61,886 bases of DNA from a virus. The notes below the pieces were generated by a model. The model did not search any database, was not told the DNA's origin, and was given only the letters and a program-made list of their open reading frames with translations. Position numbers and translations under genes: made by a program. The stretch lies in IMG/VR virus record IMGVR_UViG_3300012683_000009; one strand, written 5' to 3'. Shown here piece after piece: positions 1,172-47,337 of the stretch; the stretch's first letter is position 1, and each line of letters starts with the position of its first letter.

Positions 1172-1681
1172 TCACGAAGGAACGAGGGTCCTCACCGACG
1201 ATCCGATGAAGTCTGGGGATCCAGCTTTGTAGGCGACCAGGAAGTGGTTCTGAGAGGGGTACTGCGAGATGAACTCGAAGTAGCCGCCAGAGTCGCTCGT
1301 GACTTCGGCGATGAACACCTCGGAGACGTCTGACGTGTTGATGAGGTACCCACGGATGAGGCAGCTTCCGAGTGGGTTGCCGTTTCCGTCCTTGGTCACG
1401 CCGACGATCTTGAGCTGCGACTGGCAGCCACCCTCTTGTGGAGGAGGGGCCCAACGCCCGGTGGCAGTGGCATCTTCACTCAGAATGCCACAGGACATCT
1501 CAGGGCCGCAGTAACGAGTCCTGGGCCACAGAACGGCATCGGCGAAGGGAGCTGTGGCAGTGAACGTACCTGCCTGCTCCGGCACCGACTGGTACTGAGG
1601 GGGAGCGCCACGATCATCGTTCGGCACCGTGAACCACACGGCGCTCGTGTTGCCGTTCGCTGGAAGAGTGAACTTGCTCAC
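1172..1681 (-). CDS. Beta-sandwich (carboxypeptidase-regulatory-like) domain protein, probable fibre/virion-associated
   Basis: ORF track; motif GVTKDGNGNPLGSCLIRGYLINTSD resembles CarbopepD_reg-like fold; same-strand cluster with fibre genes. Confidence 0.5.
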   Translation of the reverse strand: MSKFTLPANGNTSAVWFTVPNDDRGAPPQYQSVPEQAGTFTATAPFADAVLWPRTRYCGPEMSCGILSEDATATGRWAPPPQEGGCQSQLKIVGVTKDGNGNPLGSCLIRGYLINTSDVSEVFIAEVTSDSGGYFEFISQYPSQNHFLVAYKAGSPDFIGSSVRTLVPS

Positions 1682-1899
1682 GGTCGTACCAGGGTGGGGT
1701 CCGCAGGCTCGATGGAAACGTCTTTCGGTGGAACCACCAGAGGGGCGTTGGGCCTCCCATGGTTCCTCACGGCGTCGATGGCGTTGTTCAGCATGGCGAG
1801 GCAGAACACCTTGTCGGCGATCGGCCCTTCGACACTCAGCGCACCGTCAGGCCAGCACTTGATGACAAGGGCAACGACAGGTTGCTTCTGATCCGCCAT
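1678..1899 (-). CDS. Hypothetical protein (73 aa)
   Basis: ORF track; 4-nt overlap coupling with neighbours. Confidence 0.4.
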   Translation of the reverse strand: MADQKQPVVALVIKCWPDGALSVEGPIADKVFCLAMLNNAIDAVRNHGRPNAPLVVPPKDVSIEPADPTLVRP

Positions 1900-1908
1900 G
1901 GTACCACC

Positions 1909-2340
1909 TCATTCGTCGATCACGGCCCAGACGTCGCAGACCGGGGCGGTCGCGATGATCCAGACGACGATGCTGTTGCTGATGGGAACGCCGAGACCTC
2001 TTGGGAAGGTCCAGATGATACCAGCACCGATCGTGGCCGTGCAGGCGAAACGACGGAAGAAGTTGGTGGGGACGGTCGGAGCGGTACCCCACGCCACTGC
2101 CGCAGTCGTGAGACCCGTCGGGCCACCACCGTCTGCCTCGTCGAGGAAGGTCTGAGGCGAGGTCGGGGTGACGCCGATGGCGCCAGGACGGCCCAGGCCG
2201 TACACGCCGGCGGTCGCAGCGGTCTGGCTGATGCCGACCTCCATGATCTTCGGCTTGTTGGTTGCCGCCGTGCGGACTTCCCAGCTCGGGGTCGCAGCGG
2301 TACCCGAGGTGGTGCGCTGCGAGAGTGAGTAGATGGCCAT
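1909..2340 (-). CDS. Hypothetical protein (143 aa), G/A/T-rich, probably structural
   Basis: ORF track; compact same-strand packing. Confidence 0.45.
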   Translation of the reverse strand: MAIYSLSQRTTSGTAATPSWEVRTAATNKPKIMEVGISQTAATAGVYGLGRPGAIGVTPTSPQTFLDEADGGGPTGLTTAAVAWGTAPTVPTNFFRRFACTATIGAGIIWTFPRGLGVPISNSIVVWIIATAPVCDVWAVIDE

Positions 2341-2347
2341 GTTCGTC

Positions 2348-2935
2348 TTACCCCAGGGTGATGGTGTACGTGATCTCCAGCGTGTCGTTGAGCACGAGCG
2401 AACGCTGGGTGAAGGCGAGAACGTGGTTCATGGTGCCGCTGGATGACGCCGTGAAGAGCGCTGCCTTCTGAGCCGACTGCGAGCCGGTGGCCGTGAAGGT
2501 CTTGTCGACGGTGGTCTGGTTGCCTGCGCCGGTGGGCAGCACGACGATGCCCTGAGCTCTGGTGAGCCCGTTGGCTGCGATCTCGTTCGAGAGGGTGGTT
2601 GAGGTCGCCGTCTCGGTGAGAGCATCGTTCGAGAGGGCGACGTAGTTCAGCCCGTTCGCACCGAGACCGGAAGTGCCGTAGCCCTGGGTGTGAAGGAAGA
2701 TGCGGCCGGGGTTGGTGATGAGGTTCCAGACGACCTCTGGCTCATCCACCATCTTGAAACTGCGAGGGTCGGGGACGAAGAGCCCCGTGGCCTTGTCCAT
2801 CAGGAAGTCCGTCGGCCGACGGTGGGTGATCTTCATCTGAGCTCGGCCGATCGGGATGAACTCCTTCAGAGGCGAGCGGAGAAGAACGGAAGCTGCCATC
2901 TTCTCTGCACTACGAACGAGCTCTCGCATGTCCAT
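2348..2935 (-). CDS. Hypothetical structural-like protein (195 aa)
   Basis: ORF track; T/S/G-rich beta-like composition. Confidence 0.5.
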   Translation of the reverse strand: MDMRELVRSAEKMAASVLLRSPLKEFIPIGRAQMKITHRRPTDFLMDKATGLFVPDPRSFKMVDEPEVVWNLITNPGRIFLHTQGYGTSGLGANGLNYVALSNDALTETATSTTLSNEIAANGLTRAQGIVVLPTGAGNQTTVDKTFTATGSQSAQKAALFTASSSGTMNHVLAFTQRSLVLNDTLEITYTITLG

Positions 2936-3238
2936 GTCTTACTGCTCCTGAAGTGAGGGGCCCGATGGCCAAGGGAGAGAACTGGAGTTCCCGGACGTGA
3001 GGTGGCATGGTACCCGTCCGGGTGTTCGTCAGAGAAGCAAAAGTTTGGTGTCAAGAGTGATGGAAGGTTAACCGGTACGGGATACCGGGCTCCGCTCGAA
3101 ACGGATGCGCTCCCTCCGGGGAGTGGGCTTCGACTGCTCAACCTTCCGCTTCTGGAGAGTAAACAGCGTAGGTCGCTGGCCCGCCTGCTAAGCGGTGCGC
3201 CCCGAAAGGGGTGTGATTCGAGTTCACTGCTCTCCGCT

Positions 3239-6200
3239 TCACTTCTTCTTCTTGAAAACGACTTGGACGCTCGGACGAAGGATCTGAGAACCCTCGCCAA
3301 CGAGAAGAGTGACCTGGCCGTGGAGAAGTACCTTGCCGGTGGCGGTTCCCGCTTCGAAGATGACGTGGTCTCCCTCGTTGATCTCGTTCGGCGACTGACC
3401 TCCCTCGTTGACAGGGACGGGCGCAGCAAAGACGAAGTCCGGGAACGTCGGCATCCAGTCGGTGCTCGGCTCACGCTCCAGCTTGACGAAGAAGGAACCA
3501 CCCTCTTGAACAAGAGGAGCCTTCTGCCAGATGAAGTCCGGCATGATCGGCAGCCACTCGACATCTGGCACCCGGATGAAGATGCGTGTGTAACCAAACG
3601 CTCCTGTGTCGACAGGTCTTGGTGCTGCCCGAGCGAAGTCTGGGAAGTCCGGCGACCACGCAAGAGCGGGCGTGTAGTCGAGATCGAGGAACGAGATCGT
3701 CCCCGTGTCGACTGGACGAGGCAGAGCTCTTCCAGCGAAGTCAGGGTAGCTCGGCGCCCAGTCGACGTAGGGCTCGTATTCGAGGTGAGCACGGAAGACA
3801 CCGCCGACATTGACTGGAGGCTGAGCCTTCCTTGCGAAGTCTGGGTAGTCGGGGAGCCAGTCGACGGCGGGCTCACGCTCCTGGATGACGATGACGCTCT
3901 GGCCTTGCGGAACGAGAGGCGTCTTGCCCCGAGCGAAGTCCGGATAGTCCGGGTACCAGAGAGAGTTGACCGTCGGGGCAACGAAGCGCTGGAAGAAGTA
4001 ACCGCCTTCGTTGACGGCACGAGGCAGAGCTCTTGCTGCGAAGTCTGGGTAGTCCGGAGACCAGTCGAGCTGAGGCTCTCTCTCCAGATGGGTGCGGAAG
4101 ACGCCACCTTCATTGACCGGCCTCTTCGCCGCACGTGCGAAGTCTGGGTAGCTCGGTTCCCAGGAGAGCTTCGGAACGAAGTCCGGATCAAGGAACGAAG
4201 CCCCGCCCTCTCTCAGGGTCAACGCACGAGGGAGAGGAGCAACCGCATCCTGGTAGGACGGGAACCAGTCGGTGGGCTCGTACTCCAGATGAGTGCGGAA
4301 CTGCCCACCCTCGTTGACTGGACGAGGGGCAGCTCTGGCGAAGTCTGGGAAGTCTGGGAGCCAATCGACATCTGGCTCTCTCTCAAGCTTGACGAAGAAC
4401 GCTCCGCCGACGTTCAGCGGAGGACGAGCAGCACGAGCGAAGTCAGGGAAGCTCGGGGACCAAGAGAGCTTTGGTACGAAGTCGAAGTTGTCGAAGGGGG
4501 CGAGACCGCCTTCATTGACCGCTCTTGGGAGAGCTCGACCTGGGAAGTCTGGGTACTCAGGGCTCCAGTCAGTCGTCGGTTCGTACTCAAGATGCGTCCT
4601 GAAGACGCCGCCCTCATTGACGGGGCGTGCAGCCGCCCTGGCGAAATCCGGGAAGTCTGGGAGCCAATCCGTGACCGGAATGCGAGGAGGAGTGGCTGGG
4701 ACCCGGAAGACACCGCCTTCGTTGACAGGCCTCGGAGCTGCCCGAGCGAAGTCAGGAAAGTCCGGCAACCAGTCGGTGGTCGGCTCACGCTCTTGAATGA
4801 CGAGAGCGAAGAAGCCCTCTCGAACAAGAGGAGCACTGGTCCTGGCGAAGTCTGGAAATGCGGGGGACCAAGACAGTTTCGGAACGAAATCGAAGTTGTC
4901 GAGAGAGGCGTACCCGCCTTCGTTTACTGGCCGTAGAGCTTTCCTACCGGCGAAGTCTGGGTAATCCGGAAGCCAATCGGTCGTTGGCTCGTACTCAAGG
5001 TGAGCTCGGAAGACGCCACCCTCGTTGACCGGCCGAGGCGCTGCTCTGGCAAAGTCAGGGTAGTCGGGAAGCCAGTCAGTGACTGCTTCACGCTCTTGAA
5101 TGACGAGGACACTGAGACCGGTGTCGACGGGCCGAGGCTTCGCTCTTGCGAAGTCCGGGTAGCTCGGAGCCCACGCCAGCTTGGGAACGAAGTCTGGATC
5201 GAGGAACGAGAGACCCGTCTCGGCAAGAGCAGTTGCTCTCTTGGCTGCCTGACCTGGGAAGTCCGGATAGTCCGGGCTCCAGTCGGTGGTGGGCTCGTAT
5301 TCGAGGTGGGTTCTAAAGAGACCACCTTCGTTGACCGGTCGAAGAGCCGCACGACCAGCGAAGTCAGGGTAGTCAGGACTCCAATCGAGCTGTGGCTCCC
5401 TCTCCAGATTCGTCCAGAAGAGACCACCCTGTGGGTTTCGAGCAGCGGCCCGAACCTGATCAACACCTTGGTCCCACGGGAAGCCAGTTGACGGGTCGAA
5501 GCCTGTCGGAGTGAAGACGAAAGGAGCTTCTCCGCCCTTCTCGACAGGAACTGCTCTTGCCCGAGCGAAGTCCGAGAAGGTCGGCTGCCACGCCATCTTC
5601 GACACGAAGTCGAGAACGGGCCCTCGGATGTTCTCCCACTGGCTGACGGCGAACGGTGAGAGAGTGTTGCCGTTGACGGAAGAGTCGACGAGCTTGTCGG
5701 CTTCCGACGCGAACTTCCAGAACCCGCTCAGGTTCGAAGTTCTGACCGTGGTGAACGAAAGACGCTCAGCCTCGATCTCAGCGTCAGTGAGCTGGGCATC
5801 GTACAGCTTCCAAAGAGACAACCCTCCCGTTAGGAAGTTGGAAGTCGTGTACGAGAAGTACATCTTGAACGAGGCGCCCTGGGCGACGATCGTTCCTGTG
5901 GCACTGACGATGGCGTCGGTCTCGGTGCCACGGAAGATGGTAGCCGTGGTGCCGTTGACCCGAAGAGCGATGAAGTAATACTTCTGATCGACCAGCGCTC
6001 CGGAGATCGTCGCTGGCCGGGTGAAGCCGAAGGTGTCGACGAGAGCGACCTGCCCGGTCTTGAATTCAAGAGCGAGACCAGTGCCGGCGGCGTCACTGAC
6101 CCAGATCAGTGAGTCGTCGGCAGTAGCTGCATCGAACTTGGCCCAACCGCAGACCGTGTAGCTGGTGTTGTTCGCCGGAAGCCCGCTACGGAAGAGCGGG

Positions 6201-7375
6201 TCGTTGGCCGAATCGAACCTGATGGCCCCGAGCCCGGCTCTGGGGACCTCAAAGAGTCCGCCCTCAGGAACTAGACGTGGAAGCCTTCGAGCAAAGTCCG
6301 GGTACTGTGGAAGCCACGAAGGACTGTTCGCCGGGCTGAAGCCTGCTGGAACGAAGGTAAAGTCGACAGCCCCACCACCGTCTAGAACTCCTCGACTCTG
6401 CGGACGTAGAGCAGGAGCTTCCTCTACCTGTTCGAAGAAGGTCTTGAGAGACGGATCGAACGGCCCATCCTGGAGGAACGGACCTTCTTCCGTGCTCCAA
6501 GAACCGGCCCCGATGTCAGAGAGATTACGAACAAAGCCGCTGGAGTCGATTAGACGAGTAGCGGCATTCTCCAGCTTCCAGACGAACTCGATGTTCGCCG
6601 TACGAGCAGGGAGAATTCGCGTCGACTCGGCGAGAGCTTCGGCTGCCGACAGCGGAACACTGTGAACCTTGAAGCCAGTGAGGCGTCCATCGAAGTTGTC
6701 GAGGAAATCGTCGGTACCAATCTCGAAGGTGGTGGGCGTCCACCCCGTCGTCATTCCAGTGACAACAGTATGAGTAAGCGGACCGCCAACTACGCCAACG
6801 TATGCATCGGCGTTTCCTCCAGTGCCGACCGAGATGCAGGCAAACATCCACTTGCCTGGGACGAAGGTCTCGATGAGAACGAAGCCTCCGTTCCAAGCGA
6901 GGAGGATCTCGTTGTCGCTGAGGACTTCGATGTTGTGGTAGTTGGTCGGGCCAGCGTCGTTCAGGGTCCAGAACGCAGCGTCGCCAGCAGGCGTGGTGGT
7001 CTTATAGAAGAAGCAAGAGACCGAGTAGTTGGTCGGCCCTACGAGATTCGTGTCTCGATGGAGTCCGTTGTTGTGATCAAGACCAACGAGCTTGAGCGCC
7101 GTTCCGAACTGAGACGGTGGTTTCGACTCGGCGTCCTGACGAAGGCCCGGCGACCGTACGGCTGCTCTTGCCGGCTGATCAGGGTACGACGGAAGCCAGG
7201 TCGGAACTGCTCCGGGATCTACTCCCGGAGGAACAAAGACGAAGGCTGTCGCCGCCAGAAGAAGAGCAGTAGCCCTTCTCGGCACGCTATGCGCCGGAGG
7301 CCCAGGAGGCTGCTCGTAGGGAAACCCGTTAGCCGGGTCGAACGGTGCCGCTTGCGTGGAGAGTAGGAGCGACAA
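3239..7375 (-). CDS. Giant (1378 aa) repeat protein: two LamG/concanavalin-like lectin domains followed by about 25 copies of a 33-aa repeat (DW[LS]PD[YF]PDFAR..P.PVNEGG...); probable tail fibre/receptor-binding protein
   Basis: ORF track; LamG-like segments (NYSVSCFFYKT...WMFACISV and NTSYTVCGWAKF...YYFIALRV); repeats evident in translation; overlapping ORFs 3002..4936(+) and 2866..4191(-) are shadows of the repeats. Confidence 0.75.
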   Translation of the reverse strand: MSLLLSTQAAPFDPANGFPYEQPPGPPAHSVPRRATALLLAATAFVFVPPGVDPGAVPTWLPSYPDQPARAAVRSPGLRQDAESKPPSQFGTALKLVGLDHNNGLHRDTNLVGPTNYSVSCFFYKTTTPAGDAAFWTLNDAGPTNYHNIEVLSDNEILLAWNGGFVLIETFVPGKWMFACISVGTGGNADAYVGVVGGPLTHTVVTGMTTGWTPTTFEIGTDDFLDNFDGRLTGFKVHSVPLSAAEALAESTRILPARTANIEFVWKLENAATRLIDSSGFVRNLSDIGAGSWSTEEGPFLQDGPFDPSLKTFFEQVEEAPALRPQSRGVLDGGGAVDFTFVPAGFSPANSPSWLPQYPDFARRLPRLVPEGGLFEVPRAGLGAIRFDSANDPLFRSGLPANNTSYTVCGWAKFDAATADDSLIWVSDAAGTGLALEFKTGQVALVDTFGFTRPATISGALVDQKYYFIALRVNGTTATIFRGTETDAIVSATGTIVAQGASFKMYFSYTTSNFLTGGLSLWKLYDAQLTDAEIEAERLSFTTVRTSNLSGFWKFASEADKLVDSSVNGNTLSPFAVSQWENIRGPVLDFVSKMAWQPTFSDFARARAVPVEKGGEAPFVFTPTGFDPSTGFPWDQGVDQVRAAARNPQGGLFWTNLEREPQLDWSPDYPDFAGRAALRPVNEGGLFRTHLEYEPTTDWSPDYPDFPGQAAKRATALAETGLSFLDPDFVPKLAWAPSYPDFARAKPRPVDTGLSVLVIQEREAVTDWLPDYPDFARAAPRPVNEGGVFRAHLEYEPTTDWLPDYPDFAGRKALRPVNEGGYASLDNFDFVPKLSWSPAFPDFARTSAPLVREGFFALVIQEREPTTDWLPDFPDFARAAPRPVNEGGVFRVPATPPRIPVTDWLPDFPDFARAAARPVNEGGVFRTHLEYEPTTDWSPEYPDFPGRALPRAVNEGGLAPFDNFDFVPKLSWSPSFPDFARAARPPLNVGGAFFVKLEREPDVDWLPDFPDFARAAPRPVNEGGQFRTHLEYEPTDWFPSYQDAVAPLPRALTLREGGASFLDPDFVPKLSWEPSYPDFARAAKRPVNEGGVFRTHLEREPQLDWSPDYPDFAARALPRAVNEGGYFFQRFVAPTVNSLWYPDYPDFARGKTPLVPQGQSVIVIQEREPAVDWLPDYPDFARKAQPPVNVGGVFRAHLEYEPYVDWAPSYPDFAGRALPRPVDTGTISFLDLDYTPALAWSPDFPDFARAAPRPVDTGAFGYTRIFIRVPDVEWLPIMPDFIWQKAPLVQEGGSFFVKLEREPSTDWMPTFPDFVFAAPVPVNEGGQSPNEINEGDHVIFEAGTATGKVLLHGQVTLLVGEGSQILRPSVQVVFKKKK
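3500..5900. repeat. Coding tandem repeat region (about 99-bp period) inside the giant gene
   Basis: Periodicity of W-PDYPDFAR motif in translation; boundaries approximate. Confidence 0.6.
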
Positions 7376-7390
7376 CGCCCACCCCCAAGG

Positions 7391-7687
7391 TTACTTGCTC
7401 TGCTGAGCGAGGATGGCTGCGGCGATGCGGCTCACATCTTCGTCGCTGAGCTTCATGGTGACAACACGAGGCTCTTCGACTGTTGGCAGGCCAACCTCAG
7501 GTCCTGGGCGAGCGGCCACCGCTTCGGCCTCACCGGACCCGTCCCACACCTGGTAGAGGGTTGGTCCATTGCCCTTCTGGATCTCTTCGCGGCACTCGGC
7601 CTTTGGGTAAGTGCCAGCAGCCAGAATCTCTTCCAGCTTCTTGTGCGAAGCGTTTCGATCTGCCGTCTCGAACAGTTTCGTAGCCAT
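7391..7687 (-). CDS. Hypothetical protein (98 aa; start MATKLF)
   Basis: ORF track 7391..7735 trimmed to the ATG that overlaps the upstream stop (TAATG). Confidence 0.45.
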   Translation of the reverse strand: MATKLFETADRNASHKKLEEILAAGTYPKAECREEIQKGNGPTLYQVWDGSGEAEAVAARPGPEVGLPTVEEPRVVTMKLSDEDVSRIAAAILAQQSK

Positions 7688-8358
7688 TAGAAGATCGCCA
7701 CCTCTGCCCAAACGATGTTGACTGCTGCCGTCCAAGTACCGGTAGCTGGGACGGCCACGCTGCGAATGACGAGTCCTTCGTTCTGGACAAGGACAAAAGG
7801 GTGCCCAGCGTCTAGGTCACCAGCGTAGATGTCGGTACCTGGGCCGATGATCTGACCGTTCAGCGAAGCAGTGATGGGGCCGGGGGCGGCAATAGCTCCC
7901 ATCGAGTTGGCTTCGAGAGTGGAGGTACCGGCACCCAAAGCAGCAGTGGTGGCAATACGAATGTCACCAGCGGCCACCAGCGAAGAGCCCATGCTCGTGC
8001 GCTTCTTGAGGGTGGCCGATGGGGTAACCGAGGTACCACCGGTTCCCTGAGCCGACCAGGTCGTGACCTTCACAAGGTCTACTTGAACAGGAACACCAGC
8101 GGCGAAGAAGGTGGTGCTGACCACCGCAGAGATGCTGATGCGCTGAATGACGGCGAGGCGAGTGGCATCCGTCCAACGAAACTGGAAGATCTGCGAGTTC
8201 GCACCAAGAGCGGCGGGCAGAATGCCGGTGAAGCCACCGTACCGGTAGTGACCGAAGGAGGTGTACTCCAACGGCTTCGCTGACGTGCTGAGAGCACGGA
8301 ACGTAGTGCCCTGCACCTCGGCGACCGTTCCTCCGTTTCCCTGAACTTGAATCGCCAT
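7687..8358 (-). CDS. Hypothetical beta-rich G/A/T/S-rich protein (223 aa), structural-like
   Basis: ORF track; composition; same-strand cluster of similar small proteins. Confidence 0.5.
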   Translation of the reverse strand: MAIQVQGNGGTVAEVQGTTFRALSTSAKPLEYTSFGHYRYGGFTGILPAALGANSQIFQFRWTDATRLAVIQRISISAVVSTTFFAAGVPVQVDLVKVTTWSAQGTGGTSVTPSATLKKRTSMGSSLVAAGDIRIATTAALGAGTSTLEANSMGAIAAPGPITASLNGQIIGPGTDIYAGDLDAGHPFVLVQNEGLVIRSVAVPATGTWTAAVNIVWAEVAIF

Positions 8359-8361
8359 GCC

Positions 8362-8652
8362 TTACAGGCCTCCGGTCATTCCCGAGCTCAGGTATACCTC
8401 ACCTGACCCAACAGTGAGAGACAACTCTGTAGCCTTGTCTCTTGCAGCCGAAGCACAGGCGGCATGGATCTGAGCCACCGTTGGCGAGTTCTGCCCAACA
8501 CTCAGTTGCAAAGCCGTGATGTCGTGCGGCCCCTGAACCGCCCCGTTGTCATCGACATCTGAGCCGAAGAACGACACCGTGCAACTTACGTCGACCTCTG
8601 AGGTGTTCTGTCGGTTGAAGAACTGCTTGATCGACACAAATGCTTTGGCCAT
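8362..8652 (-). CDS. Hypothetical protein (96 aa)
   Basis: ORF track. Confidence 0.45.
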   Translation of the reverse strand: MAKAFVSIKQFFNRQNTSEVDVSCTVSFFGSDVDDNGAVQGPHDITALQLSVGQNSPTVAQIHAACASAARDKATELSLTVGSGEVYLSSGMTGGL

Positions 8653-8664
8653 TTGCTTTTCCTC

Positions 8665-9054
8665 TCAATTCCAAACCCAGGCAACGGTCCAGAGACCGTA
8701 GATGCGAGTACCAGCACCACCCACGCTTGTTACACCTTGCTGCGCTGCTGAAGATACAGGACCGAGACCGACGGCAGGACGAGTGCCAGTCAACTTGTCC
8801 AACGGCTCGTTGAGCTGACTGTTGTTGAATGCGTAGATCGTGAAACCCGTACCAGCCACGATCTTGCCGGCAAAGATGTTCATGGTCTCTACCATGTGCT
8901 CATCCGCAAGATGGTCCGCCGTATCAACTGGTCGGAGCCAGGCTTCTACGAGAGACCCAGCGACGATTCCCGCCTGTCCGGTGATGACGACAGACGCATC
9001 TGATCCACCTGGGAAGGCACCGAAGTCGATGGTGGTGGATCCTTGCGCTCCCAT
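8665..9054 (-). CDS. Hypothetical beta-rich protein (129 aa)
   Basis: ORF track. Confidence 0.45.
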   Translation of the reverse strand: MGAQGSTTIDFGAFPGGSDASVVITGQAGIVAGSLVEAWLRPVDTADHLADEHMVETMNIFAGKIVAGTGFTIYAFNNSQLNEPLDKLTGTRPAVGLGPVSSAAQQGVTSVGGAGTRIYGLWTVAWVWN

Positions 9055-9057
9055 GGC

Positions 9058-9321
9058 TCAGACTCCGATCGACTTCAGCATCCTCGCTCTCGCCTCGTCC
9101 TTCTCCATCTTCTTCTCGAACGGCGTGCAGGTTCCCGTGTTGTGACACGTCGGGCAGACCCCCTTCATGCAGAGCCGGCAGAACCCGCCGAGAGTAGACG
9201 GGTCCGCCTTTGGCTCGATGAAGACGATCTTGTTGCAGTGGCAGCAGGTGAACGTGTCCCGTTCCTTGGTGGTAGTTCCAAGGTCCGGGTCTGTCCAGGT
9301 GGCGTACCCCTGTACCCGCAT
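9058..9321 (-). CDS. Cys-rich putative zinc-binding protein (87 aa; CCHC...CxxC...CxxC)
   Basis: ORF track; cysteine pattern. Confidence 0.5.
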   Translation of the reverse strand: MRVQGYATWTDPDLGTTTKERDTFTCCHCNKIVFIEPKADPSTLGGFCRLCMKGVCPTCHNTGTCTPFEKKMEKDEARARMLKSIGV

Positions 9322-9324
9322 CGG

Positions 9325-16477: not shown

Positions 16478-18084
16478 AGCTCGACACGAAGGCAATGATC
16501 TTCGAGAAGGCCAAGGCCGGATACCCGGCGCTGTACCTGGTCAGTTCTGAAGACCAGCGGTCGCTGAGAGAGATCAAGGAAGCTGCGGACGAGCTCAAGC
16601 GGACGCTCTACATCTGGACGCTCGGCAAGGGCCTGGTGAAGGAAGGGTCCAACACCAAGGGCAGAGGAGGAGCTCCAACGCCTATCGCCGACACGGAGAT
16701 CCCTCCTGGAGCTCTCGCCGAGATGGCGAAGGCACCGGAGAAGTCCATCTTCGTCCTCCGGCTGTTCCACCACTTTCTCGAAGCTCCGAACATCCAGTCG
16801 ATGCTCATCGACCTCATCCCGGACTTCAAGCTGAACGCCAAGATGCTCATCATCTTGACCCCGGTTCAGAAGCTGCCGCCGGAGCTGGAGAAGGAGTTCG
16901 CCCTCATCGAGACGGCGCTCCCCGACAAGCAGATGCTGGAGCGGGTGCTCACGGGCATCATCGTCGGCTCTAGACTGCCGGACGACAAGAAGCCGTCACC
17001 AGAGGTGAAGAAGCTTCTCATCGACGCTGCGGCCGGTCTCACCACACCTGAGGCTGACAACGCCTTCGCTCTGTCGCTCCTGCGCCCGTCCATTCAGAAG
17101 ACCGGAATGGTGTGGGATCCGCAGGTGGTGCTCGAAGAGAAGATGGCCGCTCTGAAGAAGACGGGTCTGCTGGAGTACATCCCGGCCGGCACCGTCAGCA
17201 TGCAGTCGGTCGGAGGCATGAAGGCGCTGAAGCGGTGGATCGCACTCCGCAAGCGGGCCTTCACCGAAGAGGCCAAGACGTTCGGCCTGCCGGCGCCCAA
17301 GGGCATCCTGATGGTCGGTCCTCCTGGCTCCGGTAAGTCACTGGGTGCGAAGGCAGTGAGCAACGAGCTCAACCTGCCACTCATCCGCTGCGACTTCGGC
17401 AAGCTCCTCGGCAGCCTCGTCGGCCAGTCGGAGGGCAACATGCGGAAGGCCATCGACGTCGCTGAAGCAGCCTCGCCGTGCGTCCTCTGGATCGATGAGA
17501 TCGAGAAGGCTCTCGCAGGCTCGTCGGGTGGTTCTCACGACTCAGGCGTAGGAGCTCGACTCCTGGGCTACCTGCTGACGTGGATGGCGGAGAAGACCTC
17601 CCCTGTCTTCGTCTACGCCACCGCCAACGACGTGACCAGTCTCCCGCCCGAGCTTCTCCGCAAGGGCCGCTTCGACGAGATGTGGTCGGTACTGCTCCCG
17701 AACGAGGAGGAGCGGAAGGAGATCTTCAACATCCACCTGAAGAAGCGTGGGCGTGGTGATCTCGTCGGTGACAAGTCGAAGAACAAGCAGGCCATCGACC
17801 TGGACCACTTCTCCAAGGACACTGCCGGGTTCTCCGGTGCTGAGATCGAGGCCGCCGTCATCGAGTCTCTGTTCCTCGCCTTCGATGAGAAGCGAGAACT
17901 GACCTTCATGGATCTCCAGAACGCCATCGACGACACGATGCCGCTCTCGACGACCATGAGTGGGAAGATCAAGGCCCTCGAAGAGTGGTGCCGGGACAAG
18001 ACCCGTTCCTCGAACGGCGACGACAGCTACAACATCGACGCCATCCTCAAGGCAGGAGGAAGCCGCAAGGTCGAGACCGTCTGA
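16474..18084 (+). CDS. AAA-family ATPase (classic clade) with about 300-aa N-terminal domain
   Basis: ORF 16237..18084 trimmed to ATG 16474 (AAGGAG RBS, ATGA overlap); Walker A GPPGSGKS, Walker B VLWIDEIE, SRH TANDVTSLPPELLRKGRFDE. Confidence 0.85.
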   Translation: MKLDTKAMIFEKAKAGYPALYLVSSEDQRSLREIKEAADELKRTLYIWTLGKGLVKEGSNTKGRGGAPTPIADTEIPPGALAEMAKAPEKSIFVLRLFHHFLEAPNIQSMLIDLIPDFKLNAKMLIILTPVQKLPPELEKEFALIETALPDKQMLERVLTGIIVGSRLPDDKKPSPEVKKLLIDAAAGLTTPEADNAFALSLLRPSIQKTGMVWDPQVVLEEKMAALKKTGLLEYIPAGTVSMQSVGGMKALKRWIALRKRAFTEEAKTFGLPAPKGILMVGPPGSGKSLGAKAVSNELNLPLIRCDFGKLLGSLVGQSEGNMRKAIDVAEAASPCVLWIDEIEKALAGSSGGSHDSGVGARLLGYLLTWMAEKTSPVFVYATANDVTSLPPELLRKGRFDEMWSVLLPNEEERKEIFNIHLKKRGRGDLVGDKSKNKQAIDLDHFSKDTAGFSGAEIEAAVIESLFLAFDEKRELTFMDLQNAIDDTMPLSTTMSGKIKALEEWCRDKTRSSNGDDSYNIDAILKAGGSRKVETV

Positions 18085-34472: not shown

Positions 34473-34703
34473 TCACTTCTCGACGGAGGAGATGAAGCTG
34501 ATGTTGGTGAAGACGACGTCGTAGGGCTTGAAGACACCCTTCTTCGTTCTCTTGAACGGCCTTGAGGAGCTGACGTTGAGTATGCCGTTCATGACCTTGT
34601 GCTTGCTCTTGATCACGATCTTCTTGCCCTTGTCGTCGACTCCTCGAACGGTGAGCTCTACGACGTTGAAGAGGTTGGGCATCAGGTAGTTCCTGGGGTT
34701 CAT
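34473..34703 (-). CDS. Hypothetical protein (76 aa)
   Basis: ORF 34473..34823 trimmed to ATGA-overlap ATG. Confidence 0.45.
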   Translation of the reverse strand: MNPRNYLMPNLFNVVELTVRGVDDKGKKIVIKSKHKVMNGILNVSSSRPFKRTKKGVFKPYDVVFTNISFISSVEK

Positions 34704-35080
34704 TTCTTCTCCGGAACCTGCGGACGGCCCGAGTAGACACCGATCTGAACGCCTTCCGGAATGAACCCGAGAATGTCGTCCGAGCTCATGATGAAGTACT
34801 TCTTGTTCTGCCCGTCGGGCCACTTCTCATCGACTTCGATGGGGTTGGCGTGCTTCAGGAAGCCTCGGTACAGCACACGAACGTCCTTCGTGATGCCGAG
34901 CTTCTCGTTCTTCTCTCCGGGCCCGACTCGAACGACCCTGCCGGAGCCCTCACTGACGAGCTCAGCGCCGGTCTCATTCGGAGCGAGAATGATGCCCGAC
35001 TCCATCTCCTTCTTCCGTGGCTCGGCGAGCACCACGACCCAGCCGTTCATCGGACGGACCTTCAGAGGATCGAGTTCCAT
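34700..35080 (-). CDS. GroES-like co-chaperonin (Hsp10 family) with C-terminal extension (126 aa)
   Basis: ORF 34700..35128 trimmed; similarity to GroES: PLKVRPMNGWVVVLAEP...ESGIILAPN...GRVVRVGPG and KYFIMSSDDILGFI vs E. coli EVLIMSESDILAIV. Confidence 0.65.
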   Translation of the reverse strand: MELDPLKVRPMNGWVVVLAEPRKKEMESGIILAPNETGAELVSEGSGRVVRVGPGEKNEKLGITKDVRVLYRGFLKHANPIEVDEKWPDGQNKKYFIMSSDDILGFIPEGVQIGVYSGRPQVPEKK

Positions 35081-42764: not shown

Positions 42765-43146
42765 GGGCCCGACCTGGTTTCGACAGGGACGTAGAGATTC
42801 TTCGCTGCATGCCGAGCTGGCTCACAAGCTCGTAAATCCAAGAGAGCAAAACAACAAAAGCCAACGACAACGTTGAGCTGGCTGACAGCCCGGTTCGCCT
42901 GGCTGCTTGACCCCTGGTCTCGGTAAGCAGGCACCGAGTAGCTGAGACTGGGAAACCCATCCGGTGCTGGGGCTCGTTCAATCCTCAAGAGCGAGTTCGA
43001 GAGTCGTAACAGAGGCGTGCTGCCGAGGTGAGCCTGTCCGGGCTTCGCCCTACTCGGCATCGTCGTACAGAGTGAGAAACGGACTACGCATGTAGAAGTG
43101 ATGAGTCGAAGGTTTCTGGACGAGGGTTCGATTCCCTCCGGGTCCA
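42765..43146 (+). ncRNA. ssrA: tmRNA (ssrA), about 382 nt, with tag reading frame ANDNVELADSPVRLAA-stop (42860..42910)
   Basis: 5' GGGCCCGACCTGGTTTCGACAGGG and 3' ...GCATGTAGAAGTG...GGACGAGGGTTCGATTCCCTCCGGGTCCA align to the E. coli ssrA ends; acceptor pairing 42765-71 with 43139-45 includes a G3-U70 pair; tag ORF ends LAA-TGA. Confidence 0.85.
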
Positions 43147-43159
43147 CTTGGGAGAAGTC

Positions 43160-44835: not shown

Positions 44836-45074
44836 TGTTCAACTTCCCCAAGATGCCGAAGTTCTCGAAGCTGGTGGAGAACGCCTTCAAGACGTTCGAC
44901 AAGGGCTTCGAGCAGGTGGAAGAGGCCTTCGATCAGCTCGACGAAGAGATGCCGAAGCTCGATCGAGACCTGAAGGACATCAAGCCTGGCGAAGAGAAGG
45001 AAACCGTGACAGAAGAACGTCGACCAGATGGAACTGTCATCACGACACGCACCGTCATCAGGAAGACTTCGTAG
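44835..45074 (+). CDS. Hypothetical protein (79 aa)
   Basis: ORF track. Confidence 0.5.
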   Translation: MFNFPKMPKFSKLVENAFKTFDKGFEQVEEAFDQLDEEMPKLDRDLKDIKPGEEKETVTEERRPDGTVITTRTVIRKTS

Positions 45075-45164
45075 TGGCCGAGACGTAGGCGGCCTGGTGG
45101 AGGCGGCGGCCCAGAACATCGGGTCGCCTCCCTTTTACTGATCGGTAACACCCAGGAGGGGATC

Positions 45165-45497
45165 TTGAAGTTCACCGAGTCGCTGAAGAAGATCCCAATC
45201 GGGGGAGAAGTGGGTCGACTAGAGAACTCAGGACGGATCTACCCGTGCGTCGTATGTGGGACTCGGACGGGCTGGAGGAATAACGGAGATGGCAGTTGTC
45301 CGGGAGTTCCCTGTTGTAGCGACGAGTGTTTAGATGTGATGGACGAATGGTCGAAAGAGAGCGGTTCGAACACATCTGAAACGAACCGTATCTCCAGCGC
45401 TGAACCCGTTCTTGCGAGGCCAGAGGTGAGTCAGACCCATGAGCGAGAATCGGGCAATGAGGAAGCTGCTGCCAGTTCGGAAGATCCTGCTCGTTGA
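45165..45497 (+). CDS. Cys-rich protein (110 aa), TTG start with AGGAGGGG RBS
   Basis: ORF track. Confidence 0.5.
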   Translation: MKFTESLKKIPIGGEVGRLENSGRIYPCVVCGTRTGWRNNGDGSCPGVPCCSDECLDVMDEWSKESGSNTSETNRISSAEPVLARPEVSQTHERESGNEEAAASSEDPAR

Positions 45498-45846
45498 TGA
45501 TGACGAGCTGATCCGTTCGTTGATGAAGCTCTACATGACCGGGCTCGGCAACTTCGAGTTCTGGGAAGAAGGGAACGGCATGGGTGCTCTCAACCTGACC
45601 CGGCAAGTTCACCCTGACATCATCATCACCGATCTCACCATGCCAGTGATGGATGGAGCGATGCTCACCGCTGAGATCAGAAAAGACCCGGACGAGCTCG
45701 TCCGGAAAGTCCCCATCATCGTCGTCACCGGTGCTGGTGAGGACTTCAAGACCGCCGCCTACAAAGCTGGTGCGAGCCTGGTTCTGGAGAAGCCACTCTC
45801 CAGGAAGACCTTCGCCTCAGCTCTCGAACGGCTACTCCCCAAATAG
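45439..45846 (+). CDS. Stand-alone CheY-like receiver (REC) domain protein
   Basis: ORF track; all REC hallmarks: DD (LVDDDE), phospho-Asp (IIITDLTMPVMDG), T (IIVVTG), K (LEKPL). Confidence 0.75.
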   Translation: MSENRAMRKLLPVRKILLVDDDELIRSLMKLYMTGLGNFEFWEEGNGMGALNLTRQVHPDIIITDLTMPVMDGAMLTAEIRKDPDELVRKVPIIVVTGAGEDFKTAAYKAGASLVLEKPLSRKTFASALERLLPK

Positions 45847-46047: not shown

Positions 46048-47337
46048 ATGGCGAAGAAAGCGGTGCTGGTGATCACGGATCCTGGGATGCCTCCAACGGT
46101 GTTCGTTGTACCGGACGAGGCCCTCAACGAAGGAGACATCAAGAGGCTGAACCGTCTCCTGGAGTACGTCGGCAGCTACGACTTCGACGCCGAGGACTTT
46201 CGGGAGTGCTCCAACCTGAAGGAAGTGCATGACGCACTGATCGAGCAGTTGGGCCTCAAGGACGATGAGGAGGCACCAGAGTTCGATTGGTACCCGGACC
46301 AGAAGCTCGCCGTGACTCGGGCCGAGGTGAAGAAGCGGGAGCTCGAAGAGCACTACAAGAAGTATCCTCACGGGACCGTCACCGGGAGGATGAGTTCGAA
46401 GGATGGCCACTTGTCGAACTTGCCGAAGCCTGGGCCTTCACTTCGACAGGCGGCCAAGAGAGTCGACTTCGGCTCGCCGTCTCCCACGGGACGCTTTCCT
46501 TCAGCGCTCGAACAGCAGCACATCAACCCTTTTCTGAAGACGAACCCCAGAGTCGACGCAGAGTTCAACTTCAACTTCGACTACGCAGAGATCGAGAGGA
46601 GACTGTTCGCAGCCATCGGACCACCCATCGCCAAGATCTATGACGAGTACGTCTTCGAGGTTGCGGACAAGGATGCACCAGCAGCTCGGGAAGCGATGAA
46701 GCAGTTCTGTGAGGAAGTGTTCAAGAACGTCAAGTTCCCCCTCGTTCGAGTCGGCGACTTCACCATGTACGAAGGTGGCGTGGGTCACTGGAAGTCGGAG
46801 AAGTCGAACCTCCAGGAGCTGCCCAAGCACGTCAAGACCCAGAACGGCACGCTCGTGACGATCAACTGGGGCCAGTGCTCACCAGAGTGTGCTGGCTGGC
46901 TCCACATGAACGAGCCGTACGAGATCGAGCAGTGCGACGAGTGCAGGAGGTTCGAGCTGACCCCTGACGGGCACGAAGCAGCACGCAAAGCCCATCGGGA
47001 GGAGTGTGGCTGCGGCTGGCCGGAGTTCGACATCCAGGACGCAGCAATGGCCTGGGTCACAGACCTGATCGAAGACCACGTCATCACGAAGGACGACATC
47101 AAAGAGCTGTCGGACCTTCTCTGCTGCCGTGACACTGAGTTCATGGACAACGTGGTGCCGGCTGTCTACGCCTGCTCCAGGCTCGTGGAGAAGGCAAGGA
47201 GCGCCACCAACCCCAACAGGAACAGCCTCGAAGGTCTGGCGAAGCTCCTCAAGGAAACCCGAGATGGCATCGAGAACGAAACGCTCAAGCTCAAAGACTT
47301 CGGCAGCCCTCCCGGCTCCGAAGAAGAAAGTGACTAG
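46048..47337 (+). CDS. Hypothetical protein (429 aa)
   Basis: ORF track. Confidence 0.6.
   Translation: MAKKAVLVITDPGMPPTVFVVPDEALNEGDIKRLNRLLEYVGSYDFDAEDFRECSNLKEVHDALIEQLGLKDDEEAPEFDWYPDQKLAVTRAEVKKRELEEHYKKYPHGTVTGRMSSKDGHLSNLPKPGPSLRQAAKRVDFGSPSPTGRFPSALEQQHINPFLKTNPRVDAEFNFNFDYAEIERRLFAAIGPPIAKIYDEYVFEVADKDAPAAREAMKQFCEEVFKNVKFPLVRVGDFTMYEGGVGHWKSEKSNLQELPKHVKTQNGTLVTINWGQCSPECAGWLHMNEPYEIEQCDECRRFELTPDGHEAARKAHREECGCGWPEFDIQDAAMAWVTDLIEDHVITKDDIKELSDLLCCRDTEFMDNVVPAVYACSRLVEKARSATNPNRNSLEGLAKLLKETRDGIENETLKLKDFGSPPGSEEESD

Follow-up and report, generated by a model that had tools for sequence, protein, structure and literature searches.

The 61,886-nucleotide (nt) viral sequence IMGVR_UViG_3300012683_000009, in the following called the window (the whole stretch of DNA analysed, about 62 kilobases (kb)), carries a gene for a protein of 135 amino acids (aa) with a receiver (REC) domain. 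It is well supported that this protein, referred to here as the receiver, is a classical and intact single-domain response regulator, which is apparently phosphorylatable. The chances are about even that it plugs into a histidine-aspartate (His-Asp) phosphorelay of the host, be it as a decoy or as an eavesdropping switch, possibly together with a zinc-finger protein encoded by an overlapping gene. Bacteria sense their surroundings mainly by two-component phosphorelays, and phages interfere with these via unrelated small proteins such as PIT4. The window presents a single-domain response regulator in a somewhat unusual carrier; a huge phage with a receiver will not be very surprising to the specialist. 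Since its phosphorylation site is intact and the gene, as described below, is under purifying selection and restricted to phages, a hijacking of host signalling can be tested directly, and the receiver is a small, well-folded test case.

The receiver gene and its product

The receiver gene comprises the following elements:

45439..45846, + strand: receiver gene, single-domain response regulator (REC/CheY-like), 135 aa; supported by the open reading frame (ORF), Pfam family PF00072, an AlphaFold2 (AF2) model, homologues and the ratio of non-synonymous to synonymous substitutions (dN/dS)
45496-45501, 45631-45633, 45727-45729 and 45790-45792, + strand: codons of the key receiver residues D20/D21, D65, T97 and K118, respectively
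45423..45429, + strand: Shine-Dalgarno-like GAGGTGA, 10-16 nt 5' of the receiver ATG and within the coding sequence of the zinc-finger gene; read from the sequence

The receiver ORF runs from ATG to TAG at exactly these coordinates. A codon-usage model, which was trained on the long ORFs of the window, classifies it as coding, and its codon usage agrees with that of the window. The Shine-Dalgarno-like GAGG lies 12 nt 5' of the receiver ATG, and a purine-rich counterpart of the GAGGTGA element is present at the same position in five related loci. The ATG start is credible because the N-terminal sequence MSENR is kept in most homologues.

The first-pass annotation of this gene, which was made from the sequence alone, had described a complete REC domain with all phospho-acceptor residues and had named a match to the Pfam family PF00072 (Response_reg) as the check. 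Residues 16-129 of the protein match positions 1-110 of the 111 positions of this profile with 77.2 bits (gathering score 30.2; E=1.4e-21), which is far above chance. No other Pfam domain was found in the 135 aa of the protein, and its homologues are likewise only 128-170 aa long; the earlier statement that an output domain is missing therefore holds. The closest solved structures by sequence are RR468 of Thermotoga maritima, the cognate partner of the kinase HK853, and CheY proteins (E ~2e-15). In the alignment with RR468 (3dge_C), the acidic pair D9/D10 is matched by D20/D21, the phospho-acceptor D53 by D65, and T83 and K105 by T97 and K118, respectively. The AF2 model of the receiver, which was computed from the family alignment, has a predicted local distance difference test (pLDDT) score of 90.5 and shows a (beta/alpha)5 fold with the order b1-a1-b2-a2-b3-a3-b4-a4-b5-a5. 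RR468 is also the top Foldseek match of this model, with a template modelling (TM) score of 0.92 and a root-mean-square deviation of 1.4-1.5 A, and TM scores of 0.82-0.86 were obtained for CheY structures. Full-length profile match, residues and fold together bear out the earlier description of the domain.

An exact-sequence look-up of the receiver protein returned no record. PADLOC did not detect a match to a defence system among the receiver and seven neighbours, and a scan for sigma-70 promoters around the receiver gene, including the region 3' of an upstream hairpin, found none.

The link to chemotaxis, which the first-pass annotation had considered, found no support, and an assignment as CheY orthologue was rejected. 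The receiver scores 47 bits with the CheY equivalog model NF007901 (cutoff 189) and 48.9 bits with NF041367 (cutoff 200), and che genes are absent from its vicinity. The position of the CheY switch residue Y106 is occupied by V115, and this valine is invariant in the receiver family, as in RR468.

A receiver family of large uncultured phages

A search of 5.8 billion proteins revealed 15 close homologues of the receiver, which are 52-98% identical to it and contain PF00072 only; the next matches fall to 36% identity or less. The homologues are encoded on contigs of Logan, JGI and NCBI metagenome assemblies, with lengths of up to 111-203 kb. Five of the neighbourhoods (loci L001, L002, L005, L008 and L010) were compared with the window, giving six loci in total. 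In L001, L002 and L008, a RyR-domain gene is followed by a gene of ~285-330 aa, small ORFs, a Cys-rich ORF of ~110 aa and the receiver gene. In L001 and L002, the receiver gene precedes a small ORF and then a DUF7694 or polymerase-A-fragment gene. The most distant relatives, L005 and L010, have retained the pair of Cys-rich ORF and receiver gene, and several of their neighbours are different.

Neither the receiver protein nor the family alignment detected a relative in IMG/VR. Among 185,579 bacterial and archaeal genomes (one per species), the best matches are receivers of unrelated phyla with 26-37% identity, which give no clue to the host. A profile search of 1.84 billion representatives (50% clustering) yielded 841,958 receivers, among them three to four single-domain members of the family; the results of this search are dominated by hybrid kinases with several receivers, which rank above the true family members because their scores add up. 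A nucleotide search of 50,697 phage records with 16 kb around the receiver gene gave no match. A tblastn search of the phage records with the receiver protein gave matches of 37% identity or less only, many of them in unannotated fragments resembling host DNA, and these are uninformative. It is well supported that the receiver family is small and confined to a lineage of large uncultured phages, whose genomes probably have 160-200 kb or more. Because of this lineage-restricted distribution, the receiver is regarded as the product of a phage gene family and not as a recent pick-up from a host.

The receiver gene is under purifying selection. In a comparison of six genes by the method of Nei and Gojobori, dN/dS values of 0.09-0.25 were obtained, with synonymous sites near or at saturation and saturated in the most distant pairs. 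The phosphorylation quintet is conserved across the 15 family members as D/D/D/(T or S)/K, with threonine in 13 and serine in two of them. Column entropy, which was computed on the 15 family sequences, is minimal in the active-site loops beta1-alpha1, beta3-alpha3 and beta5-alpha5 (0.00, 0.32 and 0.36). Similar values were found for the alpha1-beta2 loop (0.39) and for beta2 (0.35), a region that bears the family motif GLGNFEFWE. Helix alpha1 has a low entropy (0.66) and alpha4 a higher one (1.07), and the highest values were obtained for alpha3 (1.27) and alpha5 (1.39). The classical output face formed by alpha4 and alpha5 is thus more variable than the docking face.

The PDB entries 4JA2 and 4JAV report a rewiring of the specificity residues V13, L14, I17 and N21 of RR468. 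Their equivalents in the receiver are L24 (mostly leucine in the family), I25 and L28 (both invariant) and Y32 (tyrosine or phenylalanine). As the active-site loops have a low entropy and the alpha1 specificity positions are conserved, the face for kinase docking and phosphotransfer is the most constrained surface of the protein, although constraint is also seen outside of it. This pattern of conservation is what docking and phosphotransfer as the main job of the receiver would require.

The overlapping zinc-finger gene

Two further elements are located directly upstream of the receiver gene:

45165..45497, + strand: Cys4 zinc-finger gene, 110 aa, TTG start; supported by protein-level conservation in relatives
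45105..45138, + strand: terminator-like G+C-rich hairpin and T-run, between the gene ending at 45074 and the zinc-finger gene; found by a pattern scan

The first-pass annotation had called the receiver an orphan. This description is right as far as a kinase within the window is concerned; the receiver gene is, however, not isolated, since the conserved zinc-finger gene overlaps its first 59 nt in a different frame. An overlap of 38-59 nt was found in all six loci. The start codon of the zinc-finger gene, TTG in the window, is replaced by ATG or GTG in the relatives without a shift in position, and GGAGG precedes it. Ribosomes that end the zinc-finger gene would cross the ribosome-binding site and the start of the receiver gene, which makes a translational coupling of the two genes plausible.

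The zinc-finger protein consists of an N-terminal Cys4 domain of ~60 aa, followed by a variable acidic and Ser-rich tail. The Cys4 signature C28-x2-C31-x19-C51-x3-C55, with 'CSDECLD' as its second half, is invariant and has the same spacing in 11 sequences; W37 and SDECLD are also invariant in the relatives. The Cys spacing fits the pattern C-x2-C-x19-22-C-x3-C, which is the signature of treble-clef fingers of the TRASH/zf-FCS/DUF2256 type. In a comparison with DUF2256, the protein remained below the threshold (13.9 bits, cutoff 25; best member E=0.0014). A Foldseek search with the AF2 model, which has a pLDDT of 56 and a moderately confident core, gave a best E of 0.5, with eL24, MYND and YacG as top but non-significant matches. 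The zinc-finger protein thus resembles the treble-clef fingers of DUF2256, YacG and eL24 in its Cys spacing and the 'CSxxC' second half, whereas the additional N-terminal segment and the long acidic tail distinguish it from them.

Two more distant relatives, L019 (4001..4228) and L020 (1177..1419), possess a tail-less zinc-finger gene of 75-80 aa, and the DNA available for them contains no receiver gene. Within this phage group, the receiver gene is thus present in some members and missing from others. The tail extension was found only in loci with a receiver.

The stem of the hairpin (45105-45128) comprises eight pairs, seven of which are G-C, and is followed by TCCCTTTT. It is well conserved with few base changes, and a T-run follows it in all four of the closest loci (window, L001, L002 and L008); the alignment is partial in L010 and poor in L005. 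The hairpin may function as an attenuator or mark an operon boundary.

Putative role of the receiver in host signalling

For the analysis of the genomic surroundings, 115 non-overlapping gene calls were made with a home-made procedure, which cover 88% of the window. Ten neighbours of the receiver gene were scanned singly against Pfam and the remaining products as spacer-joined concatenates, which may cost slight sensitivity. Among all 115 gene products, no HisKA, HATPase_c, Hpt or CheA/W/Z domain and no signalling domain other than the receiver was found, in line with the earlier claim that a cognate kinase is missing from the window. Precomputed Pfam hits covering 10 kb on each side in the five related contigs contain no kinase or Hpt domain, and a six-frame search of the window with the family profile found no second receiver. 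A paired two-component arrangement, in which a kinase gene adjoins the gene of the regulator, was thus found neither in the window nor in the five related neighbourhoods. As the phage region in view does not supply a phosphodonor, the donor would most likely come from the host, and as the receiver has no output domain, its effect would be exerted by competition. In cells, single-domain regulators are known to act as phosphate sinks, e.g., CheY1 of Sinorhizobium.

It is tentatively proposed, at slightly less than even chances, that D65 of the receiver takes up a phosphoryl group from a histidine kinase or Hpt protein of the host and that the receiver silences a host pathway by competition, i.e., as a sink or decoy. 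A phosphate sink or an interference with host two-component signalling, as suggested in the first-pass annotation, is plausible and agrees with the pattern of conservation; the position of the gene in a block of small genes (see below) and the precedents of PIT4 and of the cellular phosphate sinks also speak for the proposal. The receiver would be expressed together with the overlapping zinc-finger gene and would dock on a host histidine kinase or Hpt protein via helix alpha1 and the active-site loops, whereupon the phosphoryl group would be taken up on D65. The drain of phosphoryl groups from the host kinase, or its occupancy, would leave the cognate regulator under-phosphorylated. Consequently, a host response would be switched off during infection; candidates are motility, envelope stress, exopolysaccharide or a defence-linked pathway. 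From the sequence, we infer the phosphorylation of the receiver, the host kinase as donor and the outcome as sink or decoy.

Several observations weigh against the proposed competition for a host kinase. First, the helix alpha4 residues K104, A107 and Y108 and the beta5-alpha5 residues E117, L120 and R122 are invariant or nearly so, which could mark a conserved output surface and would then favour an effector-type switch. Second, the 62 kb are part of a genome of probably 160-200 kb or more, and a phage kinase could be encoded elsewhere. Third, L019 and L020 have the zinc-finger gene and lack the receiver. The receiver gene is therefore viewed as an accessory addition beside the older zinc-finger gene, whose product is not its obligate partner.

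The first of these points leads to a rather unlikely alternative, in which the receiver is an eavesdropping switch. A host kinase would phosphorylate the receiver, and the phosphorylated form would bind a phage or host target, thereby coupling phage development to host sensing. Gene expression, replication or the timing of lysis could be steered by protein-protein contacts as in the case of CheY, DivK, CpdR and EpsW, and the co-translated zinc-finger protein would be one candidate target or partner. The intact and conserved phosphorylation site is consistent with such a function, and so are the six invariant alpha4 and beta5-alpha5 residues, the overlap with the zinc-finger gene in all six loci and the restriction of its tail extension to loci with a receiver. 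A recent precedent is EpsW, a single-domain regulator that is reported to act by direct binding (PMC12802240). However, alpha4 and alpha5 as a whole belong to the more variable parts of the receiver, and the occurrence of the zinc-finger gene without a receiver speaks against an obligate partnership.

A small probability is assigned to a complete phage two-component system, in which a phage histidine kinase or Hpt protein encoded outside of the window phosphorylates the receiver. The related contigs reach 164-203 kb, which leaves room for such a gene in the partial genome, and BFVD contains viral histidine kinases, mostly of giant eukaryotic viruses and of few phages. Nevertheless, neither the window nor the 20-kb neighbourhoods of the relatives encode a kinase, and cognate kinase-regulator pairs are usually adjacent.

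A phosphorylation-independent role, either as a scaffold-type pseudo-receiver or as an enzyme of the cRec class of jumbo phages, is quite improbable. cRec domains are the sole receiver-type domains discussed in a survey of jumbo phages (Iyer et al. 2021, PMC7824862). However, the receiver matches PF00072 with 77 bits, and its top structural matches are RR468 and CheY. In BFVD, a cyclic-phosphate processing receiver appears only at rank 30 (E=1.8e-3, TM ~0.54), whereas classical viral receivers reach E values of ~1e-9 to 1e-10. Around the receiver gene are the RyR-domain gene, genes of unknown function and a gene whose product has a polymerase A-like fragment; this neighbourhood contains no NAD+/ADP-ribose, RNA-ligase or WYL genes. 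The cRec family was rejected on the basis of the strong PF00072 match, the lack of NAD+ and RNA-repair neighbours and the weak likeness to the cRec-annotated viral model, and the pseudo-receiver because the quintet is fully conserved in the 15 members.

A decoy or switch function of the receiver would make it the first phage response regulator with a defined function. If its phosphate comes from a host kinase, the molecular mimicry of a signalling substrate would emerge as a takeover strategy, and the receiver would represent a natural inhibitor or reporter, portable and specific for one kinase. Otherwise, the receiver would be one more accessory gene acquired by a large phage.

The window as probable part of a large phage genome

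The following features of the window outside of the receiver locus were identified:

3062..3149, + strand: tRNA-Ser (cga); found by ARAGORN only, absent from the Rfam gathering-threshold scan
3239..7285, - strand: Laminin_G_3 (ConA-like lectin) repeat protein, 1,348 aa; Pfam
10926..10999: tRNA-Arg (tct); ARAGORN and Rfam agree
11127..13817, + strand: major-vault-protein-like protein, 896 aa; PF11978 MVP_shoulder 1.6e-30, PF17795 Vault_3 2e-7
16474..18084, + strand: phage AAA+ ATPase; phrog_8638, 9e-129; PF00004
20059..22395, + strand: RIIA homologue; phrog_612, 7e-96
34700..35080, - strand: GroES/Cpn10-like co-chaperonin; PF00166, 2.6e-7
42765..43149, + strand: transfer-messenger RNA (tmRNA), full-length; Rfam RF00023, 151 bits; ARAGORN tag peptide ANDNVELADSPVRLAA
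43336..43719, + strand: RyR-domain (ryanodine-receptor repeat) protein, 127 aa; PF02026, 7e-11
46048..47337, + strand: polymerase-A-motif protein, 429 aa, just 3' of the receiver gene; phrog_17 1e-5, PF00476 0.007

Further genes encode a DNA methyltransferase, an NT5C nucleotidase, a staphylococcal-nuclease-like protein and a GNAT protein, and there are dozens of small ORFs without any match. The receiver gene itself belongs to a long run of small co-directional genes whose functions have not been assigned; such blocks often hold genes for host takeover.

It is strongly indicated that the window is part of a large phage. The phage origin assumed in the first-pass annotation is supported by the RIIA homologue, the AAA+ ATPase, the tmRNA and the fact that relatives of the receiver occur only on large metagenomic contigs. 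Relatives of RIIA are present in 2,576 phage records, and the nearest cultured relatives of the AAA+ ATPase, with 31-34% identity, belong to phages of Rhizobium, Aeromonas and Mycobacterium. The only matches of the vault-like protein in the phage collection are found in LR756500, LR756501 and LR756503, which are huge phages of 462-735 kb; the identity is 37-41% over 82-98% of the length. The PHROGs search of ten structural-looking or mid-sized proteins of the window recognized the DNA methyltransferase only. As no capsid, portal or terminase gene was recognized in the window, its phage status is indicated but unproven.

That the receiver is a non-phage gene, joined to the window by a chimeric assembly or located on a plasmid or cellular island, is hardly credible: the missing capsid, portal and terminase genes, the few PHROGs matches and the lack of a receiver relative in IMG/VR would fit, but the same synteny is found in independent assemblies from several samples and sources, which led to the rejection of a chimera, the codon usage of the receiver gene fits the window, there are no housekeeping genes, none of the 185,579 species genomes contains a close relative, and RIIA, the phrog_8638 ATPase, the vault-like protein of huge phages, the tmRNA and the tRNA point to a phage.

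Some of the other genes deserve mention in their own right. The vault-like protein is conserved among huge phages and appears to merit a separate study; the text of the huge-phage paper by Al-Shayeb et al. (2020) does not mention vault proteins (PMC7162821). tmRNAs are known from huge phages (PMC7162821), and the tag peptide of the tmRNA might give a hint to the host. The 1,348-aa protein contains, after its Laminin_G_3 domains, well over 12 tandem copies of a motif of ~35-45 aa, 'DW(L/S)PDYPDFAR...RPVNEGG', and may serve as a tail fibre or in receptor binding; the adjoining genes on the minus strand (1172..9783) encode Ala/Gly/Thr-rich proteins without a database match. The 429-aa protein encoded 3' of the receiver gene has an isolated DNA polymerase A-like motif, TGRMSSKDGHLSNLP, and faint PolA matches only, and could be a polymerase fragment or part of a split polymerase; in relatives, a DUF7694 gene precedes its counterpart. 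The RyR-domain gene is located ~2 kb 5' of the receiver gene and is also present in L001, L002 and L008, and the GroES-like gene is likewise found on related contigs.

Comparison with known systems

The receiver shares its fold, its length, the quintet (DD, D, T, K) and the absence of an output domain with RR468, CheY, DivK, Spo0F and EpsW. In contrast to these cellular single-domain regulators, to which it is at most ~30-37% identical, it is encoded by a phage and has no adjacent kinase gene. It further differs from CheY by the valine that replaces the aromatic switch residue Y106, and from cellular receivers in general by the invariant motif GLGNFEFWE in the alpha1-beta2 region, which is specific to the family.

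Receiver-type domains of large phages have also been described as the cRec class, for which the processing of cyclic phosphates has been suggested as the function within NAD+/ADP-ribose and RNA-repair systems (Iyer et al. 2021, PMC7824862). These domains share with the receiver the receiver-type fold, the conserved catalytic aspartates and the occurrence in large phages. However, cRec domains are divergent, never occur in kinase signalling and are tied to NAD+/ADP-ribose and RNA-repair genes (PMC7824862). Response regulators and two-component systems are not mentioned in the huge-phage paper of Al-Shayeb et al. (PMC7162821). Literature searches on phage single-domain regulators, CheY-like proteins of huge phages and viral PF00072 auxiliary genes found no functional study, and they did not reveal a demonstration of decoy-substrate mimicry by any phage. 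A parallel to the proposed decoy is PIT4 of the Pseudomonas phage LSL4, an early protein that binds the domains of host histidine kinases and alters the behaviour of the host (PMC10714779). Both proteins would have the same point of attack, but PIT4 is not a receiver domain.

Small receiver folds have also been annotated in tailed phages, namely A0A6C0R1B8 of the Alteromonas phage vB_AmeM_PT11-V22 (149 aa) and A0A6J5RMP2, a 'CheY-like receiver' of 143 aa. Foldseek comparisons of the receiver with the annotated tailed-phage receivers gave E values of 1e-6 to 1e-9, and receiver-domain families of PHROGs, e.g., phrog_731, were matched as well; these are annotated as having an unknown function. 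The annotated phage receivers are only 19-28% identical to the receiver and are thus separate acquisitions. Stand-alone receivers were therefore already annotated in a few phage genomes; the present one belongs to a conserved, phage-restricted receiver family with an overlapping zinc-finger gene.

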